Shown here piece after piece: positions 2,863 to 54,422 of a stretch of 64,000 nucleotides of DNA. The notes beneath the pieces were generated by a model. It was not told the DNA's origin. It did not search any database and saw only the letters and a program-made list of their open reading frames with translations. The DNA comes from a virus. Location of the stretch: IMG/VR virus record IMGVR_UViG_3300042569_003487, positions 1 through 64,000 of that record. One strand, given 5' to 3'. Numbering within the stretch: position 1 is the stretch's first letter; each line of letters opens with the position of its first letter. The translations under genes and the position numbers were made by a program.

Positions 2863-3288
2863 ATGAACAAGATTAAATCGTTTAATGAATACCTAGTAGA
2901 GTCTGCTGATATAGCTCAGCTTGCTCAAGACCTAGGTGGTACAGTAGAACCTGTAGAGGGCCAGACAGACTGGTCAGCAGTTAGAGGTTATCTAGATGTT
3001 AACCGTGAAAAACTTAAAGAAACCCTTATAAAGATAACTGGTGATAGAATAACTGCAATGGTAGTTATTAAGGTTGCCGATATCTATGCTGAAGACAAGC
3101 GTGATGGGGTAACTCCAAATCCAGACTGGTTAGGAGAAGCTCCAATTGTAGATGAAAACACGCCAGATCTACAAGAAATGGTTAAGGTGGTTATTGCGGC
3201 TATTCAGCGTAATCTAGCTAAATCAGATCAAGCTACCCTTGCTAAGTTGAGTACTGCAGGTAAAGGGATTAAAACCAGCCGTTATTAA
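2863..3288 (+). CDS. putative internal head protein with CTS-like leader
   Basis: N-terminus MNKIKSFNEYLVE-S; ATAAATA at 2832. Confidence 0.55.
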   Translation: MNKIKSFNEYLVESADIAQLAQDLGGTVEPVEGQTDWSAVRGYLDVNREKLKETLIKITGDRITAMVVIKVADIYAEDKRDGVTPNPDWLGEAPIVDENTPDLQEMVKVVIAAIQRNLAKSDQATLAKLSTAGKGIKTSRY

Positions 3289-3291
3289 CCT

Positions 3292-3795
3292 GTGAAGTAT
3301 ATTAAACCCTATCGACTAGTAGAATCCGCAGATCCTTTCTGGACAGGCTATGAAAGACTTGTTGATCTAGGTATGATTGATATTGAAGACTGGGTCAAGA
3401 TTAAAGATGATGTTGTCCTACTCGTTAAGGAGAGGCTGGCTAGTCACTATCCTGAATTGGATGTAGAGAAACTTGCATTTGATGAGATCCGTATCTATCA
3501 AAAGGGTAAAGGCGGCAGAGATCCTTATTATAGTGTCTATATTGATAAAGGCGTTAACCATAGTTATAAATTATGGAATTGTCGCTTAATAGTTCGTTTT
3601 CAAAACGCAACTGGCAGAGCTGACAGTAGTCGTCTTATTAAGGTACCCGATTATTTCTGGACCCGACCAATCGGAGGCTATGCAGATATTCCCGATACAG
3701 TAGCACAAAGTAAGTGGATAGCTGACGAAATTATTGGGTGGATGGAAGAGGTCTTTGTACCATGGATCGGCGTTGAAGTAAAAGAACAGGACTAA
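3292..3795 (+). CDS. putative internal head protein (CTS-like leader, RLxDLG motif)
   Basis: MKYIKPYRLVE-S and ERLVDLGMI; GTG start. Confidence 0.55.
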   Translation: MKYIKPYRLVESADPFWTGYERLVDLGMIDIEDWVKIKDDVVLLVKERLASHYPELDVEKLAFDEIRIYQKGKGGRDPYYSVYIDKGVNHSYKLWNCRLIVRFQNATGRADSSRLIKVPDYFWTRPIGGYADIPDTVAQSKWIADEIIGWMEEVFVPWIGVEVKEQD

Positions 3796-3797
3796 TT

Positions 3798-4403
3798 ATG
3801 AAGTATATCACTAAATTTAGATTATGGGAATCTCAAGAAGAGGTTGATACGGCTAAACGTCTCCTAGACCTAGGCCTAATGGAACCCCAAGATTATAAAC
3901 AAAAATTACGGGAGCTTGGTTGGGACAAGCGGTATCGTAGCCAATTTGTTGAAAACCTTGAAAAGCTATTTGTGGATCTAGGTTTGGAATGGAAAAACTG
4001 GGCAACCGATCGTCAAAAAGCAAACGGTACTGTACTCCTTAAATTTAGTCCAGCTGATGCAGCCGAGTTAATCTTTACTGCAACAGTACCCCCAGGTTTA
4101 ACACCACGTCAAGAGGCCCGATTCCAGAATATTAAGGAACGTCTCCTAAAGGTAAAGCGTGAAATGGAAATGGATGTGGAAGTTAGAGGCCGACTTGCCT
4201 TTGAATACTGGATTTTCCCAGGCTCATTCCGCCCAAGCGGTCACTTTGGCGAACCTACCTCTAGCCAAACTGTTAATTTTGATGGTTCCACTGATCCTCA
4301 ACACTCAATGGCCAGATTCCTCTACCAAGTTGCTCTTGATGCAGACGCAAAGGGCTGGATCTGGAATCCTCAGCACCCCCACTATAATTTTGCACGTCGC
4401 TAA
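3798..4403 (+). CDS. putative internal head protein (CTS-like leader, RLxDLGL motif); likely paralog of 10390..11019
   Basis: MKYITKFRLWE-S, KRLLDLGLM, TDRQKANGT. Confidence 0.55.
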   Translation: MKYITKFRLWESQEEVDTAKRLLDLGLMEPQDYKQKLRELGWDKRYRSQFVENLEKLFVDLGLEWKNWATDRQKANGTVLLKFSPADAAELIFTATVPPGLTPRQEARFQNIKERLLKVKREMEMDVEVRGRLAFEYWIFPGSFRPSGHFGEPTSSQTVNFDGSTDPQHSMARFLYQVALDADAKGWIWNPQHPHYNFARR

Positions 4404-4461
4404 CCTTTGGCCTCAACCCCCTGGCGCGGGGCGCAATCGGGCGAATCTGTTGTAACTGCCT

Positions 4462-4489
4462 AAAAAAAGAGATCCGGGGATCTCTCTTT
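4462..4489. terminator. bidirectional terminator
   Basis: AAAAAAAGAGATCC-GG-GGATCTCTCTTT between convergent genes. Confidence 0.7.
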
Positions 4490-4507
4490 AAATTAAATTA
4501 GTCTCTA

Positions 4508-5173
4508 TTAAGCTTGGTGAACTGGTAACTTTGTGTTATTCACTGTCCAATTATCATCAGTAAACATTTTCTCAACATCAGCAATACTTTTCTCGCTGTG
4601 CGTTCTCCAAAAATCAACAATAGTTTTACCTTCAGTTGCCTCTTTATTAAAGGTAATTTCACCATGACCCCAAACGTCTCCTTTATCAAATCCTAACCAT
4701 TTCATTAATTTAAATGCAGCTAGCACCTGTACTGGCAATACATCTGAATCATTTGACGCAATTACCTCAACCCCTTGAGCAGTATCATTTTCAAGATCAG
4801 ATGGCGCGCCAGGCTTACGGTCTTTTTTTGCAGTACCTGCATGCCATGCAGTTAAGCCTTCTGGAAAAGTTCTAAACACCTTGCCTTCGCGATCAATAAC
4901 CCACTGTACGCCAAGATTACGATTATTTAGAATATCCACTACATCTTCAGCTTTACCTCGACCTGCAGTATGGTGAACAACAAAATATTTTTCCTTGTTT
5001 TTCATTGGACGTAGAGAGGATTGGTGTGCAGTATCAGATAAATCTTCAATGTCACCCTCAAACTCTTTAAACTCTGTGTTATCTGAGCCAAATGAAGATT
5101 TAGCAGCAACTCCGGTAAATAGTTGCGCAACATCGCTCAACCAACCTTCAAATAATTTTACGTGCTTAGCCAT
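4508..5173 (-). CDS. N-acetylmuramoyl-L-alanine amidase (Amidase_2 type) with CTS-like leader
   Basis: Zn-amidase motifs VVHHTAG, AWHAG, GVEV and GHGE; leader MAKHVKLFE-G; ATAAATA at 5195-5201. Confidence 0.8.
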   Translation of the reverse strand: MAKHVKLFEGWLSDVAQLFTGVAAKSSFGSDNTEFKEFEGDIEDLSDTAHQSSLRPMKNKEKYFVVHHTAGRGKAEDVVDILNNRNLGVQWVIDREGKVFRTFPEGLTAWHAGTAKKDRKPGAPSDLENDTAQGVEVIASNDSDVLPVQVLAAFKLMKWLGFDKGDVWGHGEITFNKEATEGKTIVDFWRTHSEKSIADVEKMFTDDNWTVNNTKLPVHQA

Positions 5174-5208
5174 TTTTAATTTGCTATTTCTTGTTATTTA
5201 TCCAAAGA

Positions 5209-5484
5209 CTATTCAGTCTCGTGGTCGTAGAATCGGGAAAACTCATTAAATGCCGATTGGTCTACCTGACCAAGGTGATCTAGTGAAAGCTCCCATCTGC
5301 CAATGGTTGAGTTGGAAATGAATAGCTCTCCATGTAGTGAATCAATTAGGGCATGCTGTTTTTCAATTAGTTCACGCTGTTCAGCAACTTGAAATTGAAT
5401 TGATGACTTGGTTTGGTGCTGCATAACGGCAATTAAAGAAACCAAAACCAGGCCAATTGTCAAGTAAATTTCTCGGGTTTTCAT
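5209..5484 (-). CDS. membrane-anchored coiled-coil protein
   Basis: N-terminal TM then heptad-like region; start moved to MKTREIY. Confidence 0.55.
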   Translation of the reverse strand: MKTREIYLTIGLVLVSLIAVMQHQTKSSIQFQVAEQRELIEKQHALIDSLHGELFISNSTIGRWELSLDHLGQVDQSAFNEFSRFYDHETE

Positions 5485-5542
5485 ATATTTAGATTTTATT
5501 GTAGTCTTATACAAGAAACCAGCTAAACAGATTTGAGTACAA

Positions 5543-5549
5543 ATAAATA
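5543..5549 (+). promoter_or_regulatory. ATAAATA late-promoter class (T4 TATAAATA-like), representative site
   Basis: ATAAATA just upstream of structural or CTS-leader genes. Plus strand: 2832, 5543, 9658, 10362, 15855, 16734, 19455, 25131, 56943. Minus strand: 5195, 23731, 24292, 34614, 38845, 42602, 46147, 49576, 56367, 59150, 60141, 63872. Confidence 0.7.
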
Positions 5550-5572
5550 ACTACAAATAAACTTAAAATTTA

Positions 5573-7165
5573 ATGGAAATTAAAAGATACCAAAATTGGT
5601 TATTTGAAAAGCAAAATCCAAAAAGCGATTGTGGCTGTTCAAACCATGGTTTTATTACTGAAAGTATTAGCTATGATGAGGTTATGGCAAACCATAATGA
5701 ATTAAATTCACAGCCGATTACCGAGGCAGGAACCCCAACTGACCCGTTTGTTGCAGGAAAGGGCGGAAGCTCTGGCGATATATTATGTCTTTATGCAGCT
5801 GGATTCTATTCAGTAGACCACACTGATGCCAAAGGTAAAACCTTTACTAATTCTGCCAAATTTAAGCCAATTATTGATAAAATGATTGCGTTTCTTAAGG
5901 CTGAACCTAAAAAATCATGGGTTTCTGAAGTAGTTATTAGGTCTAGCGAATCGATTGTTCCAAACTTTGATATGGAAAAGCAAACTGGAGCAAAAAAGAT
6001 TGGATGGCTATCAGAACAACGCAAACAAAAGATTCAAGCCTATGTTAATGGAATAATTCAACCATTAGTGGCAGATGGAACTGTTTCTAAATTGCCAACA
6101 GTTAAACTTATTTTCGAAGAGGCTAAAACCTTAACTGAACCATCTGGTGGTTGGGATAACTATCGAGCTTGGAATAAGGAAACTGACCCTGTCAAAAAAG
6201 CGGCACTGCCAAACCATGCAGAGTATTCTAAACTAAAGCAAGGTTATGATGCTGATCAAAAAACGACTGTTCAATTTAGAGTAATTCAAGATTTAGGTGC
6301 TGCCCAATGTACAGTTGGAGTTAGAATTGTAGTTAGTTACGACGATCCAAAAAATATTGGTCATGGCTGTAATTTTGCAAATTATGAAATAACTGCAAAT
6401 GGTATTCCATTAACCACAGCTGGTTCAAGTGGAGCTGGACTTCCTGGACAATCAGTTGGCGGTTGGATTCCAAAGGGAACTGCCTATGCAAGTATGAGTA
6501 ATAGCCAAGAGAATGGTGATGTTCTTTATAAGAGCGGTGCAAAGGACGCAACTTCTGGTGGTGTACGAAAAAATTTCTTTTGGCTTCACGACACAGCATT
6601 AATTAAGCGTATTGTCGCGGCAGGAGATGGAAAGTCTATAATTCTTAGAGCAAAGTGTATAGTAAATGGAGCAGGATTTGGAGGCAAGGGTGGCTGTCAT
6701 AGTGATGCACCACACGTATATGTATACTTATCAAATGGAACGCTAGCCAAAGGGTTTGAACCAAGTGATGCACATATAACTTTAAGAAATGGAGGAACTT
6801 ATCCTAAAACAAATGACGGTGTAATTGCTGAATTGGATCTATGTGGAAACAATAGAGTTGCACAAACTGCGGCTGTAGCAAGTAGCGAAAAGACAAAGGG
6901 CGCTGCACAAACTGGTCCAAAATTAACTGGAGTTAAATTATCATTTGCTGCAAAAAAGGTTGGAACATTAAACTCTGAACAAGCTCTTCAAAATTTAATG
7001 AGTAACGGCTCCGTTACTAAGCGTGCAGATAACACATATTTAGTAAATAAGGACTTTACTGCAGGTGAAGGTGATGTTAAATATATGACTGGCGATATTA
7101 TTAATAAAATTTTACCAAAGGGATCAGCCGTAACCAGACCTGCTACGCCAAACGCTCCAAAATAA
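5573..7165 (+). CDS. large Gly/Cys-rich virion-associated protein with CTS-like leader; possible OmpA-C-like segment
   Basis: MEIKRYQNWLFE-K plus further ITE-S/ITE-A sites; SSESIVPN...WLSEQRKQKIQAYV weakly resembles OmpA-C. Confidence 0.45.
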   Translation: MEIKRYQNWLFEKQNPKSDCGCSNHGFITESISYDEVMANHNELNSQPITEAGTPTDPFVAGKGGSSGDILCLYAAGFYSVDHTDAKGKTFTNSAKFKPIIDKMIAFLKAEPKKSWVSEVVIRSSESIVPNFDMEKQTGAKKIGWLSEQRKQKIQAYVNGIIQPLVADGTVSKLPTVKLIFEEAKTLTEPSGGWDNYRAWNKETDPVKKAALPNHAEYSKLKQGYDADQKTTVQFRVIQDLGAAQCTVGVRIVVSYDDPKNIGHGCNFANYEITANGIPLTTAGSSGAGLPGQSVGGWIPKGTAYASMSNSQENGDVLYKSGAKDATSGGVRKNFFWLHDTALIKRIVAAGDGKSIILRAKCIVNGAGFGGKGGCHSDAPHVYVYLSNGTLAKGFEPSDAHITLRNGGTYPKTNDGVIAELDLCGNNRVAQTAAVASSEKTKGAAQTGPKLTGVKLSFAAKKVGTLNSEQALQNLMSNGSVTKRADNTYLVNKDFTAGEGDVKYMTGDIINKILPKGSAVTRPATPNAPK

Positions 7166-7187
7166 TTAAAGCGAATCTACTTTATAC

Positions 7188-7216
7188 AAAAAAGCCCTGC
7201 AATGCAGGGCTTTTTA
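7188..7216. terminator. bidirectional terminator
   Basis: AAAAAAGCCCTGCA-A-TGCAGGGCTTTTT between convergent genes. Confidence 0.85.
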
Positions 7217-7235
7217 TTGTTATTTAGAGTTTACT

Positions 7236-7664
7236 TTATTTTATCTCAGAGATATCCCCATTATATCTAAAGGTCTTTTCCATATCGTATATTGAAAATC
7301 CAATTGAAGTTGGAGTAGCATCTAATTTAAATAAATCAATATTCCAAAATTTATTAGTAGAATCGTTAATTACAAAAAGAGAAATTGTAAAAATTTCATT
7401 GCTATTAATTAAATCAAACCCAGTATAATTTCGTAATATTCTGTACTTAGTTTCTTTACCAATCGAGTCGACTACAATAACTGAACTGTCTGTAAGTTTA
7501 GCGATAGACTTAGTGTAAAGTTGATTTCCAAATAGCATTTCTCCACTCTCTCTGCTAACAGTAATTGTTGTAAAAGTATCAAAGTTCAATTTGATTTCAG
7601 TAGTTTGCGCAAATGCTGTGATTGACGCTAAACAAGTTAAGATAGTTAAAATTTGCTTTTTCAT
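7236..7664 (-). CDS. secreted hypothetical protein
   Basis: Sec signal peptide MKKQILTILTCLASITAFA-Q with Gln at +1, common in Bacteroidetes; AAGGAG upstream. Confidence 0.65.
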   Translation of the reverse strand: MKKQILTILTCLASITAFAQTTEIKLNFDTFTTITVSRESGEMLFGNQLYTKSIAKLTDSSVIVVDSIGKETKYRILRNYTGFDLINSNEIFTISLFVINDSTNKFWNIDLFKLDATPTSIGFSIYDMEKTFRYNGDISEIK

Positions 7665-7699
7665 ATTAAATCTCCTTTAGTTTAAATTTAATATACTAA

Positions 7700-8071
7700 C
7701 TACTCTGCACTTTTAGCACGTTCATACTGCTTTAAGAATTGCCAAGTAGATTCATGTGAATAGCAGATCGGTTCTCCATTTTCATCATGTGCGCCCCACC
7801 TTTCGCCTTCAACTTTAACTAATTCCCCATCTACCTTTTTATAACTTGGGACCTGACTAAAATCCTTTTGGCCAAAGTCTGCTTCCCACATAAACCAGGT
7901 TAGCCAGTCAACACCCTCGGGCGTCCAGATTTCACCCAATAAGTTATGGATGATTTGGCTATAAGGATCAGTAAAATCTATCAGGTCAACCCCTAATTTA
8001 TTGAGTTCTTCTAATTGTCTACTTGTCTTTTGTAAACCTAGTGTTAGCTTTAAGAAATTTTCGTATGTCAT
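7700..8071 (-). CDS. hypothetical phage protein
   Basis: EGVDWLTWFMWEADFG; ATGA overlap with the upstream gene. Confidence 0.65.
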   Translation of the reverse strand: MTYENFLKLTLGLQKTSRQLEELNKLGVDLIDFTDPYSQIIHNLLGEIWTPEGVDWLTWFMWEADFGQKDFSQVPSYKKVDGELVKVEGERWGAHDENGEPICYSHESTWQFLKQYERAKSAE

Positions 8072-8307
8072 GCTTTATTATAGATTTTTTCTTCTAGAAA
8101 TTTTAAGAGTTGACGCTTTTCACCAAACGATAAGCCATCAGCCATTGCCAAATCCAATTCATCCTCAGTTGAAATATCACACAATAGATCCAGTTCTTCT
8201 TCACTGATTCTACAAGTCTCCTTAATCATGGAATCAAATAGTCCAAAGATTCCGCCGTTTCGGTCTTCTCCTAAGTAGACCCCTTTTCTTGATAGTCTAG
8301 TATTCAT
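8068..8307 (-). CDS. hypothetical protein
   Basis: Translationally coupled at both ends. Confidence 0.6.
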   Translation of the reverse strand: MNTRLSRKGVYLGEDRNGGIFGLFDSMIKETCRISEEELDLLCDISTEDELDLAMADGLSFGEKRQLLKFLEEKIYNKA

Positions 8308-8912
8308 TATGCTATGTATAAAATTGTTGGGTTATCCTTGTGTACGTCAATATCAGGAAACTCTTCCCTAAATTTTTGCAGATTAAATGGAGCACTAATA
8401 ATATGGATTCCACTTTTAGTTTTAATAAATTCCATATAGATTGGATTGCCAGTTTCGGTTTGTAATTCAATAATTCGGCGTCTAATCTGAATCATGCTAG
8501 GCTGATGATTAAACCCATCAATTGAAATATTATCAATATCAATAATCCATTTCTTATTGGGCTCATTTGCATAGGCTCCACACACTGATTCATACGCCTT
8601 ACGAACTGACGCAAAATCCTTGTTCATAATTTGATCAGTAACCTTTTTTAGGGTATGAAAAGCCATTTTTTCAAATGAGCGACGATTAAGATTAATACAT
8701 GCTCTTGCTCCATGAAAATTGCACAGTGCAATAATTTCTGGCTCGACTTTTGCTAGGTGCTCTTCAGATTTAATGTAATATGTCTTAATAACCAAAGAGT
8801 TAGAGCCAATTTCAGGATGGTCCTTTTTTCGTTTGATTATTTGTAGATGATAAAAATCATCGCCACTCCTAAATTGGAGCATTTTTAAAATTTGTTGAAA
8901 GTTATTAGTCAC
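8307..8912 (-). CDS. putative AEP/PrimPol-superfamily protein
   Basis: WIIDID (motif I-like) and KTKSGIH (motif II-like). Confidence 0.45.
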   Translation of the reverse strand: MTNNFQQILKMLQFRSGDDFYHLQIIKRKKDHPEIGSNSLVIKTYYIKSEEHLAKVEPEIIALCNFHGARACINLNRRSFEKMAFHTLKKVTDQIMNKDFASVRKAYESVCGAYANEPNKKWIIDIDNISIDGFNHQPSMIQIRRRIIELQTETGNPIYMEFIKTKSGIHIISAPFNLQKFREEFPDIDVHKDNPTILYIA

Positions 8913-9223
8913 TAGTCGTCGATTTTAAAGGTTAAAACCTTCCAGTTAAAGTTAAACCAAACTTTAATCCAGATTAGGTTAAAACCAATATACCAACTTG
9001 GTGATAGGTTTGACTTATTAAACATAGCCTTGCCCTTTAAACGAGTCCCTACTGCCATATCCTTTTTAAACCAAATACCTAATTCATGTCGACGATGCCA
9101 TAGCGTAATGTCATCCATTAGCTTGGTAGAATATTCAGAATTTTTGTACGACTCCCACTTGTGTCGAATTACCATGGTCGTTTGAAAGTGACCTAACTTA
9201 AGAGTTTTAATTATGCCAGCCAT
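8912..9223 (-). CDS. hypothetical protein
   Basis: Operonic overlaps with neighbours. Confidence 0.55.
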   Translation of the reverse strand: MAGIIKTLKLGHFQTTMVIRHKWESYKNSEYSTKLMDDITLWHRRHELGIWFKKDMAVGTRLKGKAMFNKSNLSPSWYIGFNLIWIKVWFNFNWKVLTFKIDD

Positions 9224-9621
9224 TGATTAACTATTTGTATTAATAAGTATGAAAGTTTATATCCAACAAAAGCGCCTAGTGCACTTGGGATTGGAAAGAC
9301 TACGAGTTTACCAAGATCGGTTACATATTTTGGGCGATTAACAATTCTGCCCATAAAGAAGTAATATGTAATATAGCCAACTAAAACTGCAATATCAGTT
9401 CTGGTTGCAATAAAAACAACTAGGGTTGCACCGATAAAACCAAATAGGAAATTATCCCTAACCCCTTCCCAAACCTCAGCTCGGGTTGCGCCTTGCCAGT
9501 CTTTAACAATTTGCTGTAGTTTTGTTTTATTTTTCATTTTAAATTTCGGATCTATTTCCGTTTTTATATTTGAACTTGGCCCTTTGAGTTTTTGCCATAG
9601 CTCCCAATTGATAATCGACAT
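9211..9621 (-). CDS. multi-TM membrane protein
   Basis: Three hydrophobic helices. Confidence 0.65.
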   Translation of the reverse strand: MSIINWELWQKLKGPSSNIKTEIDPKFKMKNKTKLQQIVKDWQGATRAEVWEGVRDNFLFGFIGATLVVFIATRTDIAVLVGYITYYFFMGRIVNRPKYVTDLGKLVVFPIPSALGAFVGYKLSYLLIQIVNQWLA

Positions 9622-9692
9622 AATATATTATACTTAAGTTTTAGTAAGTCGGCACTAATAAATATCTCTATAAATCATAAAATCTTTGACTA

Positions 9693-10103
9693 ATGAAATA
9701 CGCTAAACCCTTTACTCAATTTATAAGTGAAGCTCGAGCAGATATGACGCCAACTGAATTGGAAATGCTGGATAGAATCGAAGCTAGAACTAGAGAAGCT
9801 TATCCTGAAACCTCGCCTGACGAAAAGAAAATTGACTCCAGACTTAGAGACCTAGGTCTTGCTCCTAAAGAAGAGTTCGATGACCGTTGGGATAATATGG
9901 TCGACGAGTGGGGTAGTGATCCTGAAATTAGCCGCGCAATTGATGTACTTAAGTCTCGTACAAGTGCAATCATGAACAAATACATTGACTATGGCGATCC
10001 AGAAGATGAGGCCAATTACGATCAGCGTAGAGAATGGATTTGGGAAGCTTCAATCGATGATATTGGATTCTTAGAATTTATGATTGCCCAAGGCGATATC
10101 TAA
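9693..10103 (+). CDS. acidic putative internal head protein (CTS-like leader, RLRDLGL)
   Basis: MKYAKPFTQFISE-A and SRLRDLGLAP; ATAAATA at 9658. Confidence 0.6.
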   Translation: MKYAKPFTQFISEARADMTPTELEMLDRIEARTREAYPETSPDEKKIDSRLRDLGLAPKEEFDDRWDNMVDEWGSDPEISRAIDVLKSRTSAIMNKYIDYGDPEDEANYDQRREWIWEASIDDIGFLEFMIAQGDI

Positions 10104-10318
10104 TTTTTAACTGGCACCTTACGTGCAACTTGCGGTTTTTCTATTTTTATTTTAATTGTGTCTCCAGCTTGATGAGGAGTTCGGCAATACACAGTTCCTT
10201 CAATACAGGTTTCTGCATCATATACATTATATTGGTAGGTACCTTGAAAATCTGGTGTACCTGTTCCAGATGTTACGATTAATACTAGATACGTAACAAT
10301 TTTTCCTAATTCTATCAT
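10100..10318 (-). CDS. small membrane or secreted protein
   Basis: N-terminal hydrophobic stretch; TATAAT 6 nt before the ATG. Confidence 0.5.
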   Translation of the reverse strand: MIELGKIVTYLVLIVTSGTGTPDFQGTYQYNVYDAETCIEGTVYCRTPHQAGDTIKIKIEKPQVARKVPVKN

Positions 10319-10389
10319 AATTCTATTATACCTAATCTCTGGTAAAGAGTATTAGATCTGGATAAATAACTACAAATAAGATATACTTA

Positions 10390-11019
10390 ATGTCATACTT
10401 CAAAAAATTTGGTGAATTTCTTAATGAAGATGAATCTTCGGAAGAACAATTAGCCAAACTAGCTAGATTAAAGGACCTTGGTTTGCTTGACACAGATCAA
10501 TATAGACAAGATTCCAAGAATATCCGAAAGAATGCAATGCTTGCTGCTAAAGACCGAGGAGACTATGCAGGAACAGCTCTTCCAGAAATTAGAGAAATAT
10601 TAGATTCTCCAGAAGCTCAACTACTAAGGGACAAAGGTCTTGAAGTAGTTTCAAGTCCAACTCAACTCTTAAATGGTACCCTTGTTTGGGCAAAACCTGG
10701 TTATAGAAGATCAGATGGTTGGGGTCTAGGATTTTTTCCTGGCCCAAGTAAAATACGCAGAATGACTCCAAAGGGAATTAATATTGGAGTATGGGGCCGC
10801 AGAGTAGGTTCAATGGATGTTGAAATGAAAGCTATTCCAAAATCAGCATATTCTAATGAGGCTGAATTTTATAGAGTTGCAATGAAGTGGGCAGCTGAAC
10901 ATATCGATTGGGATCAATTAGAAATGGCTGAAAGACAGAGCCGCGAAGCTTGGAGATATTACGTAAAAGGAAAAACAAAACAAGGTTATTTTAACGATGA
11001 GAATAATAGAATCATTTAA
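10390..11019 (+). CDS. putative internal head protein (CTS-like leader, RLKDLGL)
   Basis: MSYFKKFGEFLNE-D, ARLKDLGLL, SPTQLLNGT; ATAAATA at 10362. Confidence 0.6.
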   Translation: MSYFKKFGEFLNEDESSEEQLAKLARLKDLGLLDTDQYRQDSKNIRKNAMLAAKDRGDYAGTALPEIREILDSPEAQLLRDKGLEVVSSPTQLLNGTLVWAKPGYRRSDGWGLGFFPGPSKIRRMTPKGINIGVWGRRVGSMDVEMKAIPKSAYSNEAEFYRVAMKWAAEHIDWDQLEMAERQSREAWRYYVKGKTKQGYFNDENNRII

Positions 11020-12628
11020 TAGCTGGAAACGTTCGGACAGACTCTTAAACGAGAATGTTCAGGCAGCTAAACAATATATGTTAAAACGTTTTGCTCAAGC
11101 AAAAGGAATTGAATCTTCTGAAATTACGCCAGAGGATCAAGCTAGAATTTTTGCAAATGAAGATTATAAAAAAGTTTTACAGTTAATTCAGCCACTTCCT
11201 GGTTATGCATCAACCTTTGTCAAATTTAAATTTGATCATAGAGTTTCATTTGAGCAATTAGCAGAATTGCTTGAGAAAATTAAAGCAAATTCCCAATTTT
11301 TAGGGGAATTATCAATGCCAATTATTGAATTTCCAAATCAAAAGGAAGTAAATGGAGTTTCTCCATTTGAGGCGCTAATAGATGAGTTTAATCAAATTGA
11401 AACCCGTCGTAAAGCAAAATGGATTCTTAACGAATTACCAGGAAATTTACGTAGAGCAGCTAGAGAATTACCAAAAGAAGATCTACAGAGACTTTTTAAT
11501 GCAGCAACTATTATGAATGATTTGGGTCAAGAAGTTAAAGTGCGTTTGTTAAAAAAGGCAAAGGCTTTTACTAATCCAATTGATTTTATAGTTTATGCTG
11601 AAAATTATGTTAAAGGTTACCTAAACTCTGACGTTCAAAGTAAAATTGATAAATTAGAACAATTAGAACCAGAAGGCTCTGTGATTTATGCAGATGATCG
11701 TTACCTAATGTTAAGCGCACGTACAGAAAAGGCGCAAAAGGAATTATGCTCAGTTGCAAACTGGTGTATTAATAGAGGAAGTTTTAATAATAGAGGTTAT
11801 GGTGGAAGCGCTGTACAAATTAATACATTTGATTTTGGTTTACCACCAACTGATCCTCATCACCTAATTGGTACAACTATTTCATATGAAGGAAAGGTTA
11901 CATATAGTCATGATATTAACGATAGGAGTGTTAAGACAACTGATGATATTGCAACACACCTTAAGAAATTTGGTTATCCGGATAAAATGATTAACACCTT
12001 AATTCAGGTTTTTCCAATCGAAGCCATGATTAAAAAGGTAATTACTGAACTTAGCATTGATAAAAAATCTCCGATTCAAGTTCTTGATTCAGTTATTAAA
12101 GCAAGCTATAAAGTAAATCCAGAAGACGATCAAGAATCAGCTAGAGTAATTCTTAATATCCTAATGGAGAGAATTGCACCGGCAGTTAAAGAAGAAGAAA
12201 TTATTGCACTTTACATGAAGTTTGGCGTAATGTCAATTTTCTCTGCTAAACTATTTAATATGTTATTACCTAATATTAATCCTCAAACAAGATCCGAGGT
12301 TATTCAAAATGCAAAGGCGATTCTTGATGAAATTAAAGGTTATGCAAGTACTGGTTTATTTAAATATCCACAATTGCTAAATGCAGTTAAGAGCGAACCT
12401 AAAATTATAGAATTACTTGGTGAAAGTATAGTAAATGAATTTTATGCAGCTGAACCTGCAATTAAAGAACCTACTACAAAACCTAAAGTAACTCCAAGAC
12501 CAGGTCCAATTCCAACTAAAAAACCATCAGTTAACCCTGAACCAAGCGCAACTGCAGAAGATGTAGTTAATGTATTTTTAGCTGAATTAAAAAAATTAGG
12601 TACTACACCAAAGGAATTCCTTAAGTAA
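10997..12628 (+). CDS. large helical protein with CTS-like leader and a WCI (PcfJ-like?) segment
   Basis: MRIIESFNSW...LLNE-N; ELCSVANWCI; Pro/Lys/Thr-rich linker near the C-terminus. Confidence 0.5.
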   Translation: MRIIESFNSWKRSDRLLNENVQAAKQYMLKRFAQAKGIESSEITPEDQARIFANEDYKKVLQLIQPLPGYASTFVKFKFDHRVSFEQLAELLEKIKANSQFLGELSMPIIEFPNQKEVNGVSPFEALIDEFNQIETRRKAKWILNELPGNLRRAARELPKEDLQRLFNAATIMNDLGQEVKVRLLKKAKAFTNPIDFIVYAENYVKGYLNSDVQSKIDKLEQLEPEGSVIYADDRYLMLSARTEKAQKELCSVANWCINRGSFNNRGYGGSAVQINTFDFGLPPTDPHHLIGTTISYEGKVTYSHDINDRSVKTTDDIATHLKKFGYPDKMINTLIQVFPIEAMIKKVITELSIDKKSPIQVLDSVIKASYKVNPEDDQESARVILNILMERIAPAVKEEEIIALYMKFGVMSIFSAKLFNMLLPNINPQTRSEVIQNAKAILDEIKGYASTGLFKYPQLLNAVKSEPKIIELLGESIVNEFYAAEPAIKEPTTKPKVTPRPGPIPTKKPSVNPEPSATAEDVVNVFLAELKKLGTTPKEFLK

Positions 12629-12629
12629 T

Positions 12630-13925
12630 ATGAAAACACTAAAACAATTTTTACAAGAGGCAAGTTTACAGGGAAATCCTGGAACACCCGATCAATACCT
12701 AAAGGGAGTTGAACGCAGAGCAATGCAAGATGTTCAAGGAACTGAACAAAGACTTGGAAGAGAAATGAGTCAGTTTATGCAATTTGTTTCTCAAGTGCAA
12801 AGAATGCAAACTCCTCAAGTTAAAGCACAATTAGAAAAACTTGCAGAAGATATTATAATGAAAGAGTACGGATCAATCCTAACTCAAACTAAATTAAGTA
12901 TTAAATTTGCAAAGGCTGGAGAAATCCAACAAATGATGGAAGAGGTTCCTATGGAAACACCAGAACCCCAAAAAGAAATTGAAGATCAGGCAACTATTTC
13001 AAAAATCCATGCTAGAAAAATTGGTAACGCAATTATGCAAGGCGAGGCTAAAAATGCAAAGCGTATGTTAGCTTTACCTGAAACCATGGATGGTATGATT
13101 AAAATTTTTGGACCAGCTGACGCTGCAAAAATGGTAGATCTTCTTAAGAAAATTACAGACATTGCCTCTGCTCTTGATTGGAGAATTCCAATGGAAGTTC
13201 AAAAGCAAATGTGGGAAAGAGATAAAGGCGGATTTAGTGGATCAGTTAAAGTTGATTTTAAACCAGTTGAAGCTGACGAAAAAACTGCAGAGGATCTTAT
13301 TAAATCTCTAGAAAGTGGTGATCTTGAAACTCAAGAAATAGAAGATACTTTAAATGAAATGGAGCCTACTATTACTGCAATTGGTACAGATTTTGCAATG
13401 CTACTTCATGAAGCAATTAAAGGAATCTATAAATTAATTGGAACTGCTTCTATTCCAGATGATGAAGAAGAAGCTGGAAAGGTTGTTGCAAATACTGGAA
13501 CACTTAGTGATGAATTAGAAGATTTAAGATATGGACCCTACTTAGCAGCAGATCTTAGAGATTTTGTAAATCGATTTACCAATTCAAGTTCAGTTGAAAA
13601 TATCAGAGAACACGTTTTTGGAAAATTAATGATTCTTGCAAAAGAGGAAACTCAAGCATTTTTACAATTAATGAAAGAAATTTTTACTGAAGATGCTGGA
13701 GCAATTAATAAAATGAAATCGATTGTTTCAGAAATTGAACAAGAAATTAAGGATTGGGAACGCAGTCAATTTGATGAAGAGGTTCCAGACCTTGGAGTTG
13801 AACCGGCTGCCACTGAAACTGACCCATCTCAATTAAGTAAAAAGGAAATTCAAGCCTTAATTGATGCAGCACTAGATGCTGGAGATTACGCTGAAGTTGG
13901 AAAACTTGCAAAATATTTAGATTAA
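12630..13925 (+). CDS. CTS-leader protein with zincin-like HE motif and C-terminal UVR-like motif
   Basis: MKTLKQFLQE-A, FAMLLHEAIKG, LIDAALDAGDYAEVGKL. Confidence 0.5.
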   Translation: MKTLKQFLQEASLQGNPGTPDQYLKGVERRAMQDVQGTEQRLGREMSQFMQFVSQVQRMQTPQVKAQLEKLAEDIIMKEYGSILTQTKLSIKFAKAGEIQQMMEEVPMETPEPQKEIEDQATISKIHARKIGNAIMQGEAKNAKRMLALPETMDGMIKIFGPADAAKMVDLLKKITDIASALDWRIPMEVQKQMWERDKGGFSGSVKVDFKPVEADEKTAEDLIKSLESGDLETQEIEDTLNEMEPTITAIGTDFAMLLHEAIKGIYKLIGTASIPDDEEEAGKVVANTGTLSDELEDLRYGPYLAADLRDFVNRFTNSSSVENIREHVFGKLMILAKEETQAFLQLMKEIFTEDAGAINKMKSIVSEIEQEIKDWERSQFDEEVPDLGVEPAATETDPSQLSKKEIQALIDAALDAGDYAEVGKLAKYLD

Positions 13926-13926
13926 T

Positions 13927-14583
13927 ATGAAAATTCAAAGATTTAAACAATTTATAAATGAAAGCGAGGAATATCTCGATGAACCTGCAAAAGAAATGTT
14001 TAATGAGCTTCTAACTCAAATTGCAGATGAAATAGACGGTCAATCTGGCTGGATGGCTTCTGTAAATGAAAACTCTAGTACCCTACGTATTGACCAAGAT
14101 TGGAATATTGATGATTTAAACTATGAAGGCGATGAGCCTAGAGTTTATGCAAGTTATACTGCAACCTTTAAAATTGCTTTTCAAGATGATTCAACTCAAT
14201 TATCCCCAGAAGTAGTTAGACTTTGGAAATTAGGATTAGCGCCAATTACTGAATTAATTAAAGGATTCGATCATATTTGGGGTTTTAGTATTGATTCAAA
14301 GGATGTCCCAGAATTAGATATTCAAGAAGGAAATAGCGAATTTGAGTTTATGTCAATTGAAGATTTGACTGGAGGCGCAACTGCTGATTTAACTGATATT
14401 GAAGCTTTTGCAACTGACTTAATTGAAACTCTTAATGGTTGGTTAGACGAACAAACTTATATGTTACACGATAGAGTTCAAGAAGAATTAGACATGATTT
14501 CTGGTTATGGTGATGACGACGAAGAAGAGGATGACGATGATTATGAAAACGATGATGACGATTTTTCTGAAGACGAAATTTAA
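13927..14583 (+). CDS. very acidic putative internal head protein
   Basis: MKIQRFKQFINE-S, RLWKLGLAP and a poly-D/E tail. Confidence 0.6.
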   Translation: MKIQRFKQFINESEEYLDEPAKEMFNELLTQIADEIDGQSGWMASVNENSSTLRIDQDWNIDDLNYEGDEPRVYASYTATFKIAFQDDSTQLSPEVVRLWKLGLAPITELIKGFDHIWGFSIDSKDVPELDIQEGNSEFEFMSIEDLTGGATADLTDIEAFATDLIETLNGWLDEQTYMLHDRVQEELDMISGYGDDDEEEDDDDYENDDDDFSEDEI

Positions 14584-51735: not shown

Positions 51736-53694
51736 TTAGTTTTTTTGATCTCCATAAAATCCAGCCAGTGTCTTTTTATACGAATCTAGATAAGTTTCAT
51801 CAAAAACTTGACGCTGTCCAGGTTTTTTTAGTTGTGGAGTATCATTTAGATAACCTACTAAATCTGAGCTAATCTTGGTTGAGCCATCACCCTGACTAGA
51901 ATTTAAGATTTTTTCAGTTATTTCTTTTTTGTATTCCTCGCTTGTACTGTCCCAAACTTCTGTTCCTAATTCAAGAAAACTAGGAGAATCAAAGAATGCG
52001 GCAGTGTTAACACAAGTCATTGCTAAGTCATCGTTTCCACTTTGACTTCTATATGTACCATTAGTTGATCTACCAAATGATCCTAATTCCATTACAGTTT
52101 TACTTTCGTTTGGAAGAATTTTATTAACATTAACGTGGTATTTAAATCTTTCACAAAATTTAATTTTATTGGTAACGCTTAGTTTAAGACCGGGCTTAAG
52201 TAATTTAGTTGCTTCTGTGTGTTTGGAATGAATTAGTTGTCCAGGCCAATACTGTTCGTTATTTGCAATTTTGTCCAAGATAAAATCCCCTTTATGGTTT
52301 AATTCAATTAAGACTTTAAGATTTTCAAAATTAAAGAGTCTATAAACCAAATATTCTAAAACTTGAGCATATTCATTAATTGTTTGCTTATTACTTCTCC
52401 AAGTTGCAACTTGCACAAGGGATAGGCAATCCATTTCGCTTTTTACTAGATTTTTAATTGGTTCCAACATTTTAACTGGAAGAGGTGCAACTTTAAATAC
52501 ATTAATAACTGAAAAGTCTTTTCCTGTTCCGTCTGCTGTATCGACTGAAAATACATATCGATCTGGCGAATTTCTAAAATCCTGCTCGTCCCAATCCTTT
52601 AGATTTGGATGTACTGTAAAGTTCCCTTCCATTAAGGCAAGAACTTCCGGATCCCAATTAATATTAAGAGGCTCTTCATATTTAGTCATAATTCCAAAAA
52701 TCTTTTTAAGATCTTTAGAAGAAAGCAATAATCGATCGGACGAAAAGAACTGTAGACCATATTCCTGGTTAAAGTCTTCTTCTGATCCCATGTTTGCAAT
52801 AGTTTCAGCTTTCCATTTATCATCTCTACCTGGAACTTGCCACCAGTCTACTCTTAGCGGAGTATAAGTATTTAGTCCATTTACTGCATCCATATAGATT
52901 TCATAGAATCTATTCATACCATTTGGAGTTGATGTAATAATAATCTTGGAGGTAGTTGATGCAGAAATAGTAGGGTAAATTGCTCGATAAAAGAAATCTA
53001 AGTATGCTGGTGAGATGTGAGCAAACTCATCAATGTATAGTAAGTGAATAGTAAAACCAATACCTGTATTTTTGGTTGTAGTACGTCCAATTAATCTACA
53101 GCCATTATCGAACTTCATCGACATAACGTTATTTGAAATACAGCCAGGTTTTAGGAAAAATGGCAAATTTTCAAAAATAGATTTAATTTTATCAACAACC
53201 TCTTTGGTTGTACTTGCAATGTTGGCTACCGCTAAAACATTTTTATCTGTATGGAAAATAAGATACCATGCAACAAATACGCCAGACATTACAGTTTTAC
53301 CAATTTGACGGCTTGCCATTAAGATATTAAAGCGGTTTGCGCCAAATGCCTTAATAATTTCCTCTTGGTAATCACGTAAAACAATTTGTTCTACTCCATA
53401 TTCAGTTAAAACCTGAGCATACTTATTTGCAAAGTAACCTACATCAGATTTACAGCGCTTAATTTCTTCAAGTTCTTCTGGAGTATATTCAAAAACCAAA
53501 TTTTGCTTTTTCCAGGCAGGGTCATTATCCTTAAATGGAGAATTCTTAATGGTCTTAATATCAATTAAACCATTTTCAAAGTCTAGTAGAAGTTGATCTA
53601 CTTTTTTTGTAGTCCAGACTGCACTATTTTCAGTATCATCCATTCTAGATACCTGTACGCTAGTCCTTCCCCCTTTTGATAAAAAATCTTTCAT
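51736..53694 (-). CDS. terL: terminase large subunit (T4 gp17-like)
   Basis: LRDYQ, SRQIGKT (Walker A), LYIDEFAH (Walker B), STPNG, VDTADG..KD, DDLAM. Confidence 0.95.
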   Translation of the reverse strand: MKDFLSKGGRTSVQVSRMDDTENSAVWTTKKVDQLLLDFENGLIDIKTIKNSPFKDNDPAWKKQNLVFEYTPEELEEIKRCKSDVGYFANKYAQVLTEYGVEQIVLRDYQEEIIKAFGANRFNILMASRQIGKTVMSGVFVAWYLIFHTDKNVLAVANIASTTKEVVDKIKSIFENLPFFLKPGCISNNVMSMKFDNGCRLIGRTTTKNTGIGFTIHLLYIDEFAHISPAYLDFFYRAIYPTISASTTSKIIITSTPNGMNRFYEIYMDAVNGLNTYTPLRVDWWQVPGRDDKWKAETIANMGSEEDFNQEYGLQFFSSDRLLLSSKDLKKIFGIMTKYEEPLNINWDPEVLALMEGNFTVHPNLKDWDEQDFRNSPDRYVFSVDTADGTGKDFSVINVFKVAPLPVKMLEPIKNLVKSEMDCLSLVQVATWRSNKQTINEYAQVLEYLVYRLFNFENLKVLIELNHKGDFILDKIANNEQYWPGQLIHSKHTEATKLLKPGLKLSVTNKIKFCERFKYHVNVNKILPNESKTVMELGSFGRSTNGTYRSQSGNDDLAMTCVNTAAFFDSPSFLELGTEVWDSTSEEYKKEITEKILNSSQGDGSTKISSDLVGYLNDTPQLKKPGQRQVFDETYLDSYKKTLAGFYGDQKN

Positions 53695-53696
53695 AA

Positions 53697-54422
53697 TTAA
53701 ATGATTTCAAAAATAGTTGAGCTTAAATCTTCATCGTCATTTTCTTTTTCAATTAAATGCTCTAAGCCTCTTTCCGTCATCAATGAATTTTTTTCATTTG
53801 GATTAGTCAGCCTATTATCAAAATCATTATTCAAACCATCGCTCTCAATTTCTTTCATGATATTTTTAGTACCAGCCGTAATATAATAGTCTCCGGCTTG
53901 AATAGCATTTACAGAAGAGGCAGGGAGTCCAGCTTGGTCCCCCTTTGAATCAACTTCACTACGCATTTTCTTGTACGTATCCTCTAAGAACAACATATAG
54001 TTTGCTTGTGTTTTAGTAACTGTGGTAAGACGATCCTGCAATTGTGACATTACTTCAAATAAACGCGGATGTGCAGCACCCTGATTTATTTCTTCCATAA
54101 TTCTTTCAATCGCCATCTTAATAGTTTTATGCTGAAAGAACATGGTCTCGATATTCATATTATCGAGTTCTTTCTTTTGTTTTAGGTAATCGTGTTGAGT
54201 AATTAAACCTAAATCTACATAAAATTTAAATAGGGAATCTGTAATCTCAAGAGCTTTCTTCTTGAAACCTGAACTCATTTCATCAAAATCAATAGGAGGA
54301 TTTTGCTCAAGTTCATTAAAACGATCGTCGACTATATCATTTTCTGAAGTATCTCCAGAATAGGTGCTTAAGAAACTTTCGAGTTCGTTTTTTATTTGTG
54401 TTTTCTTCTCTTTGCTGATCAC
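53697..54422 (-). CDS. terS: terminase small subunit (T4 gp16-like)
   Basis: HPRLFEV motif; immediately upstream of terL. Confidence 0.65.
   Translation of the reverse strand: MISKEKKTQIKNELESFLSTYSGDTSENDIVDDRFNELEQNPPIDFDEMSSGFKKKALEITDSLFKFYVDLGLITQHDYLKQKKELDNMNIETMFFQHKTIKMAIERIMEEINQGAAHPRLFEVMSQLQDRLTTVTKTQANYMLFLEDTYKKMRSEVDSKGDQAGLPASSVNAIQAGDYYITAGTKNIMKEIESDGLNNDFDNRLTNPNEKNSLMTERGLEHLIEKENDDEDLSSTIFEII

Follow-up and report, generated by a model that had tools for sequence, protein, structure and literature searches.

Little is understood of how large phages sort, hold and deliver their dozens of internal proteins. The cleavable T4-type leader is the one well-defined signal for these proteins, and the T4 targeting leader is removed on maturation. 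The locus described here raises the question of whether a second short peptide marks some of the same proteins and stays on them. The window that we analysed is a stretch of 64,000 nt (positions 1 to 64,000 of IMGVR_UViG_3300042569_003487), from a 142-kb record of an uncultured jumbo phage that is estimated to be 55% complete. A preliminary description of this stretch had pointed to a recurrent motif, RLxDLGL, in a subset of leader-bearing proteins and had proposed that it is a second address that survives maturation. No annotated phage record matched the region in a megablast search, and none of the motif carriers could be named by Pfam or PHROGs searches. We found that the helix motif RLxxLG plus a hydrophobic residue marks a subset of the proteins that the phage appears to package in its capsid.

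All five strong instances reported before are present in the sequence; the positions quoted for them were gene starts, not motif cores. Gene 3292-3795 has a leader that ends in ..LVES (3292-3327), and its core RLVDLGM (3355..3375, + strand) lies in a helix-Gly-helix module at 3322-3432. Gene 3798-4403 carries RLLDLGL (3858..3878, +) in a module at 3825-3935, and the additional L..LG caps seen earlier in this gene, LRELGW (3906-3923, +) and FVDLGL (3966-3989, +), are both there and are kept in orthologues. In gene 9693-10103, RLRDLGL (9840..9860, +; module 9807-9917) is the start of a conserved C-terminal domain. It is invariant in a three-sequence alignment and present in 27 of 27 homologues, of which one with 41% identity reads QLRDLGL; the homologues come in forms of 108, 136 and 184-206 aa, with two motif copies in the longest. 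RLKDLGL (10465..10485, +) of gene 10390-11019 falls within a SHOCT-like hairpin (10435-10545). Across 30 orthologues, down to 36% identity, Gly31 never varies and the conservation of Leu24 and Leu27 is 90% or more. RLWKLGL (14218..14238, +) is internal to the product of gene 13927-14583, at residue 98; just four columns are invariant among 11 homologues of 26-65% identity, and Gly103 is one of these. The earlier proposal had been made to depend on conservation in homologues, and the motif is indeed kept in orthologues down to 26-40% identity, with an invariant Gly. Its placement 10-45 aa after the cleavage site was accurate for four instances (about 9-37 aa); in gene 13927 the motif lies 86 aa downstream, inside a domain.

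We compared the number of RL..LG[LMIV] sites in the 142-kb record with per-protein shuffles. Five sites were found versus 0.12 expected (maximum of 2 in 200 shuffles), and all five are in proteins with T4-CTS-like leaders (n = 21-22), with none in about 118 others. The pattern RL.[DK]LG[LM], which was defined post hoc, occurs in 5 of 21 leader proteins versus 0 of 119 others (Fisher 5e-5). The suggested enrichment among leader-bearing proteins thus holds proteome-wide, and it was replicated in two distant relatives, G308 and G310. G308 has 16 RL..LG[LMIV] sites versus 0.32 expected, with carriers among 10 of 33 leader proteins and 3 of 286 others (p 8e-9), and Arg is found ahead of 16 of its 24 L..LG[LMIV] sites. 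G310 has 9 sites versus 0.23 expected, with carriers among 5 of 22 leader proteins and 2 of 161 others, and both of these other proteins look leader-like.

The carriers had been called otherwise dissimilar, and BLAST among them detects likeness only across the first 34-45 residues. A profile from distant phages, trained solely on other phages and including small-terminase orthologues, placed motif-bearing proteins as the top five of 140 in the genome, with a small-terminase look-alike first and a clear gap after the fifth. The matches include genes 9693 (E 4e-8) and 3292 (E 1e-3 to 2e-3); gene 13927 was missed by single-sequence profiles. A weaker instance put forward before, QLAQDLGG in gene 2863-3288 (2917..2940, +), is not supported: the cap is followed by Gly instead of a hydrophobic residue, no profile recovers it (E about 6), and it is not among the matches listed for the distant-phage profile. 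Because about 16 of the 21 leader proteins are without the RLxxLG motif, it is not needed for general loading or processing, and we ruled it out as a general address for cargo.

Counting one copy per protein, 7 of 7 G310 carriers read N-L-x-R-L-x-x-L-G-I. The G310 copies use different synonymous codons (mean nucleotide identity 0.61), which argues for selection on the peptide and against recent gene conversion, and rules out a signal in the DNA itself, e.g., a recombination hot spot. The residue after the Gly (+1) is Leu in 16 of 16 G308 sites and Ile in 9 of 9 G310 sites. In the orthologous families of genes 10390 and 9693 (families A and B), this position holds Val and Ile in G310 versus Leu in G000 and G308. 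When the likeness of copies within and between genomes was compared over all free positions, the permutation p was 0.07 (0.28 without +1), and we therefore rate the genome-specific flavour as weak. The case for co-evolution of the motif with a shared partner is thin and rests on this one position switching in concert between genomes.

RLxxLG plus a hydrophobic residue forms the core of an amphipathic helix of about two turns with a Gly cap at its end. Numbered from the Gly, the hydrophobic residues are at -7, -4, -1 and +1, with Arg at -5, and in relatives Asn is frequent at -8, the position expected for the helix N-cap. L-x-x-L-G-hydrophobic is a generic helix C-cap too, so part of the motif conservation could be structural. 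A second helix follows the motif in the families of genes 10390, 3798 (family C) and 3292 (family D), and is not evident from sequence in many G308 copies. The AlphaFold2 model of gene 10390 has a helix at residues 17-29, a loop at 30-34 and a helix at 35-55 (pLDDT 77-88); a fold search with this model gave no match, and a PDB sequence search with the module profile found nothing. Profiles of separate families matched one another by hhalign: gene 3798 versus gene 10390 (97%, P 2e-10), gene 3292 versus gene 10390 (87%, P 4e-6), and, in register with the other cargo modules, gene 13927 (family E; 86%, P 5e-6). We rejected the possibility that the motif is itself a protease site (hydrophobic-x-Glu in LG-I-A-E), as Glu occupies +3 only in a minority and Asp, Ser, Thr or Pro are as often found there.

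The motif had not been recognised as a described one, and this needs qualification: by hhalign, it corresponds in three or four families to helix 1 and the Gly turn of a SHOCT-like hairpin. The SHOCT domain was described by Eberhardt et al. 2013 (PMC3581485) and has a strongly conserved Glu in helix 2; "SHOCT-like bi-helical" domains have been described as well (PMC11237479). We used 25 SHOCT domains from Bacteroidota genomes as the reference, against which nulls reach a score of at most 13.3. The gene-10390 family matched with 95% probability (P 4e-8, score 32), mixed distant modules with 96%, and the gene-3798 family with 75% (P 2e-5). The match of the gene-9693 family was weak (score 16.7, P 1e-3) and that of the gene-3292 family scored 15.2, both short of profile similarity, and the gene-13927 family was at null level (12.9). 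The Pfam SHOCT model (PF09851) did not reach its cut-off of 27 bits: the best match was the gene-10390 peptide (15.6 bits, E 0.013), only 1 of 30 members of that family had E<1, and the other carriers had no match. In the reading that we favour, the hairpin in the families of genes 10390, 3798 and 3292 is a divergent SHOCT-type two-helix module.

SHOCT and the phage modules have much in common. Both span about 30 residues, with two amphipathic helices, a short loop and a strongly conserved Gly, and both are fused to many unrelated domains. They have the same register: Leu at -10, -7 and -4, an acidic residue at -2, the Gly and two hydrophobic residues, followed by a helix N-cap, an acidic residue and then an aromatic one. 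Two helices joined by a short Gly loop are found in the AlphaFold2 model of gene 10390, and the module windows align in register without indels. At position +6, compared with the SHOCT helix 2 Glu, the carriers vary between Glu, Asp and Gln. The phage modules differ by an additional Leu at -1 and frequently an Arg at -5. Location also differs: 89% of SHOCT domains lie no more than 50 residues from the C-terminus (PMC3581485), and the phage modules are found at N-terminal or internal positions. Families B and E and many copies in the relatives have only the first helix and the Gly in common with SHOCT.

The motif stands 8-25 residues past a hydrophobic-x-Glu-Ser/Gly/Ala site, both at leaders and at internal fusion junctions. 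In 121 of 124 instances, 13-29 residues separate the cut-site Glu from the motif Gly. All of the internal copies listed from fusion proteins are preceded by such a site, mostly 8-14 residues before the first Leu of the motif and up to about 24 residues before it in a three-unit protein of G308. Sites of this type are cut by T4-type and giant-phage prohead proteases (PMC3012670, PMC10052503), and by analogy with T4 and SPN3US (PMC3012670, PMC10052503) we infer cleavage at the predicted sites. We detected no match to the T4 protease family Peptidase_S77 (PF03420) in this record, which is estimated to be 55% complete. Given the placement just after cut-type sites, each predicted mature unit would start with the motif helix, and a motif downstream of the predicted cut sites, including internal ones, should remain on the mature protein. 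The proposal of a second address that survives maturation is plausible and partly supported, in that the motif is cargo-specific, conserved, under peptide-level selection and downstream of predicted cut sites; it fails as a general address.

We compared the motif to known systems that sort internal proteins. The targeting sequence of T4 internal proteins (Mullaney and Black 1996, as cited in PMC10052503) is an N-terminal leader that directs proteins into the prohead core (PMC10052503). Like the motif, it is a short peptide common to unrelated packaged proteins of a large myovirus and is tied to prohead-protease processing after Glu (PMC3012670). The leaders fit the T4-type pattern (the N-terminal 10-15 residues, ending in hydrophobic-x-Glu) but the RLxxLG motif does not, and it differs further in lying downstream of the cut-type site, in occurring on a subset of leader proteins and in repeating before internal units. 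Giant-phage head and ejection proteins are comparable in that many are processed after Glu with Ser next, and precursors may have several cut sites; SPN3US gp245 cuts after A-X-E and prefers Ser at P1' (PMC10052503, PMC5694885). No conserved helix after the cut sites is described for them in these two papers. Encapsulin targeting peptides (Family 1 consensus SDGSLGIGSLKRS, with an N-terminal TVGSL variant) dock to the inner face of an HK97-fold shell (PMC8346489). They too are short conserved peptides on unrelated cargo with a hydrophobic-Gly-hydrophobic core, but they have another sequence (the consensus was compared by eye) and are usually C-terminal, and the likeness is an analogy of concept only.

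The reading that we favour, and to which we give an even chance, is that the motif helix stays on the protein as a recognition handle for a single phage-encoded partner and takes the form of a divergent SHOCT-type hairpin in some families. The leader would bring the protein into the prohead; after maturation each cargo unit would begin with a capped helix, and this helix would then hold, order or present a subset of the small cargo units. We infer that a partner exists; it could be the portal or ejection apparatus, a protein of the core or scaffold, or, through an exosite, the prohead protease. Counting against this reading, the single oligomerisation test of a SHOCT domain in the literature had a negative outcome (PMC3581485). 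A more specific form of this idea is possible and is put forward tentatively: a two-part code in which the cleavable leader is followed by an N-L-x-R-L-x-x-L-G-L/I helix read by a co-evolving phage receptor. This receptor, e.g., the portal, inner core or ejection conduit, would position or order the cargo subset for delivery, and its co-evolution with the helix would have produced LGL in some phages and LGI in others.

Somewhat unlikely, in our judgement, is an inherited cassette, in which an ancestral leader-plus-helix (SHOCT-like) piece spread by duplication and recombination with no shared partner, and was retained for capping or nucleating the fold of small domains or for keeping the cut site at a distance from the folded body. 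Conservation between families falls mostly on the hydrophobic core and the Gly while surface residues vary, profiles of separate families match in register, fusion and fission of whole units are common, and likeness within a genome is weak except at one position, all of which this explanation would account for. Retention of Arg at -5, Asn at -8 and an acidic residue or Gln at -2 across unrelated domains is harder to reconcile with it, as is the concerted Leu-to-Ile change in the orthologous families of G310. Moreover, most cargo domains manage without the motif, and since many G308 copies are without a second helix there is no common fold for it to stabilise. Shared origin of the leader-plus-helix cassette could account for much of the motif sharing.

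We consider it doubtful that the handle acts in the host after ejection, by anchoring injected proteins at the inner membrane face, to a host target or to nucleic acid. Globular domains that are unrelated to one another carry SHOCT-like domains at either terminus, and these are predicted inner-leaflet anchors (PMC11237479); a non-self partner or nucleic-acid binding has been suggested for SHOCT (PMC3581485), and the motif is expected to outlast maturation. However, on inspection the module windows range from neutral to acidic (e.g., the gene-9693 family), which suits neither DNA nor anionic lipid well; the membrane function of SHOCT is itself a prediction; and families B and E, like many of the G308 copies, are not SHOCT-like. 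It is highly improbable, and as far as computation goes refuted, that a common helix-cap pattern recurred by chance in helical, Leu-rich proteins. In favour of chance are the post hoc definition of the pattern, the frequency with which helices end in L..LG plus a hydrophobic residue, and the small-terminase copy, which indicates that sites occur outside the cargo too. Against it, the motif is 40- to 50-fold enriched over shuffles in three genomes with almost none in proteins without a leader, is conserved in deep orthologues, and its carriers are recovered by a profile trained on other phages.

Under the favoured reading, that of a retained handle, the finding provides a short peptide that marks a cargo subset, is predicted to be retained, and recurs ahead of every unit in natural polyproteins. 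The motif occurs widely among freshwater jumbo phages that probably infect Bacteroidota, and the phage GroEL points to hosts in Flavobacteriia or Chitinophagia. A second cargo-sorting step becomes directly testable, and it would place the SHOCT-like hairpin, a very common and little-understood domain, in a concrete biological setting. Even as no more than a structural cassette, the motif would help to locate cargo units and cut sites in the genomes of uncultured phages.

A further motif-like site, which the preliminary description did not include, is in a protein without a leader encoded by gene 53697-54422 (-). The look-alike hairpin ..FYVDLGLITQHDY.. (54147..54257, -) has no Arg. The gene is probably a T4 gp16-type small terminase: it matches phrog_735 (E 3.5e-4), the large terminase is directly downstream, and PF11053 matches 7 of 14 orthologues (best E 4.4e-4), with the window's own copy below threshold. 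Its structural model has a low confidence (pLDDT 57) and gave no informative result in a fold search. We judged it unlikely that this copy is part of the cargo system, given that it is without the Arg and reads LGV, not LGI, in G310. The look-alike motif is invariant in orthologues of 52-56% identity.

The record of this uncultured phage, of which the window is the first 64 kb, is 141,925 bp long and encodes a T4-like packaging gene, the large terminase (51736-53694, minus strand), as well as a baseplate wedge protein. By eye and with an N-terminal profile, we recognized leaders of the form M-x-x-I-K-x-F-x-x-[FWY]-[LI]-x-E-[SA] on 21-22 of its ~140 proteins, which are apparently loaded into the capsid. 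The leader is similar to the capsid targeting sequence of T4 (PMC3012670). Its end, hydrophobic-x-Glu-Ser, is the pattern cut by giant-phage prohead proteases; cleavage by gp245 of SPN3US follows A-X-E, with Ser as the preferred P1' residue (PMC10052503). From this analogy we infer that the leader is cleaved in this phage. No Peptidase_S77 match was found in the record, which is estimated to be 55% complete.

The preliminary description had reported a second short motif, RLxDLGL, in a subset of otherwise dissimilar cargo proteins. All five strong instances were recovered, in the genes starting at 3292, 3798, 9693, 10390 and 13927, and similarity among these carriers is indeed confined to their first 34-45 residues. 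With genes called by a simple ORF filter, a leader set derived from this genome and a post hoc pattern that was afterwards replicated on other genomes, RL.[DK]LG[LM] was found in 5 of 21 leader proteins versus 0 of 119 others, and RL..LG[LMIV] at 5 sites versus 0.12 expected from per-protein shuffles. The weak instance QLAQDLGG in gene 2863 has no support from any profile. When the 140 proteins were ranked with a profile built only from distant phages, the top five were the small terminase and genes 9693, 3798, 10390 and 3292, below which there is a gap (E 1e-3 to 0.03).

We extended the search to three distant relatives, using their entire records; orthologues share ~30-40% identity. G308 (253 kb) has 16 RL..LG[LMIV] sites versus 0.32 expected. 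They occur in 10 of its 33 leader-like proteins, compared with 3 of the 286 others (p 8e-9), and Arg precedes 16 of its 24 L..LG[LMIV] sites. All proteins that carry the nine G310 sites (0.23 expected) have a leader-like appearance. No site fits this pattern in G307, which uses the variant L-[RK]-Q-L-x-x-L-G-[MF]. Counting from the motif Gly, position +1 is Leu in 16/16 G308 sites and Ile in 9/9 G310 sites. For two orthologous families, A (gene 10390) and B (gene 9693), it is Val and Ile in G310 versus Leu in G308 and in the phage studied here. Position +1 aside, the likeness of copies within a genome was not significant (p 0.07).

The probable T4 gp16-type small terminase (53697-54422, minus strand) has an N-terminal extension of ~90 residues, at the end of which, directly ahead of the long helical core, lies a conserved FYVDLG[LV] SHOCT-like hairpin. 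This copy is unlikely to be part of the cargo system, because it lacks the leader and the Arg and reads LGV in G310, where cargo copies read LGI; we regard it as an independent hairpin of SHOCT-like type.

The motif is kept in homologues of all five carrier families, which are non-independent samples. Among the 112 homologues of gene 10390, a 30-sequence alignment reaching down to 36% identity has an invariant motif Gly and at least 90% conservation of the two preceding Leu; the Arg is not present in every homologue. The motif is invariant in a three-sequence alignment of the gene-9693 family and was seen in 27/27 homologues, one of which, at 41% identity, reads QLRDLGL. It is retained down to 47% identity in the gene-3798 and gene-3292 families (C and D), and in the gene-13927 family (E; 11 sequences, 26-65% identity) only four columns are invariant, the motif Gly among them. 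Codons differ from motif copy to copy, which indicates that selection acts on the peptide.

The common core of the modules is an amphipathic two-turn helix with a Gly cap and hydrophobic residues at -7, -4, -1 and +1. This arrangement of hydrophobic residues and Gly is a classic helix C-cap pattern, and in the relatives Asn is frequent at -8, the position that a helix N-cap would take. The AlphaFold2 model of gene 10390 (pLDDT 83) places helices at residues 17-29 and 35-55 with a loop at Gly31; in families A, C and D a second helix follows, with an aromatic residue at +7. Bacteroidota genomes supplied 25 bona fide SHOCT domains, with which we compared the modules profile to profile. Family A matched in the expected register (95% probability, P 4e-8, score 32), whereas nulls from other family windows, 100 column shuffles and the reversed alignment scored ≤13.3. 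Family C matched SHOCT at 75%, and families C and D matched A at 97% and 87%; B and E are similar to the other cargo modules and not to SHOCT. Since the modules also score far below the cut-off of Pfam's own SHOCT model, the right label on these profile comparisons is "SHOCT-like in part", not family member. What follows the motif in many copies of G308 is Gly/Pro-rich or strand-like sequence, which leaves the first helix with its cap as the element in common. The literature offers no proven function for SHOCT: an oligomerization test was negative (PMC3581485), and near-membrane anchoring of SHOCT-like domains is a prediction only (PMC11237479).

Fusion proteins reveal how the modules are arranged. 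Genes 3292-3795 and 3798-4403 are neighbours with two bases between them, and in some relatives the two units form one ORF (junction ..VTES-AEEV..); elsewhere the gene-3798 unit lies behind a domain of the SET (PF00856) or PF05618 type (proteins compared with 3292-4403: P0140, P0143, P0144, P0152 and P0157-P0159). Other relatives fuse a Zn-ribbon unit to the gene-9693 unit, or the gene-13927 unit to a further unit. The gene-13927 family (13927-14583) ends in a poly-acidic tail, after which two homologues (P0169 and P0171) continue with ..FES or ..LES, the motif RLHQLGLA and one more domain. A three-unit protein of G308 (164031, minus strand, 449 aa) and a multi-unit protein of G310 (L168:208-2316, 702 aa, the last unit a gene-10390-type domain) carry a cut-type site, motif and domain in two or three nearly repeated sets. 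Cargo units seem to be shuffled as beads with cut-type sites between them. Each internal motif listed from the fusions has hydrophobic-x-Glu-[Ser/Gly/Ala] upstream, as at the leader end, which suggests that every predicted mature unit would begin with the motif helix. The cut-type site mostly lies 8-14 residues before the first Leu of the motif (up to ~24 in the G308 three-unit protein), and 121 of the 124 module instances have a Glu-to-Gly distance of 13-29 residues; random positions within these proteins give a median of 56, a comparison that is descriptive only because the sequences are related. Between the GC-rich island and the amidase lies a hypervariable locus (2863-4455 versus L002:298-1400 and L003:167-1965): one close relative lacks both genes 3292 and 3798, and another has a Cys-rich, Zn-ribbon-like insert between leader and motif, with a second ..ITES cut-type site.

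Several features argue that the motif is a recognition element retained on the mature protein: its specificity to cargo, its location right after cut-type sites, the conservation of polar positions across unrelated domains, the selection on the peptide and the uniform +1 residue within G308 and within G310. What counts against it is the lack of the motif in most leader proteins, the absence of a known partner and the non-significant likeness of copies within a genome past +1. A leader-plus-helix cassette of shared origin and purely structural role also explains much of the data. Direct binding of the modules to DNA or membrane is argued against by their neutral to acidic composition, as judged by inspection. 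The nearest known items to the proposed recognition element are SHOCT and the SHOCT-like hairpin in fold, the T4 targeting sequence and encapsulin targeting peptides in concept, and the multiply cleaved giant-phage head proteins in processing. In our literature searches, neither a conserved helix following prohead-protease sites nor SHOCT-like modules on capsid cargo turned up.

The C-terminal alpha/beta domain of gene 10390-11019, a member of a widespread cargo family, is modelled confidently (AlphaFold2 pLDDT 83, pTM 0.77); Foldseek returned no PDB match at E<0.2 for the model, which suggests that the fold may be undescribed. An Amidase_2 peptidoglycan amidase (4508-5173, minus strand, E 7e-11) has a leader-like N-terminus (MAKHVKLFEGWLS) and may be a packaged cell-wall hydrolase. 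The record also encodes a full-length GroEL (114679-116271, locus L004) and a GroES-like ORF recognized by eye only (129009-129323). The GroEL is 50-55% identical to its nearest cellular counterparts, from Flavobacteriia, Chitinophagia and other Bacteroidota, a likeness that hints at a Bacteroidota host.
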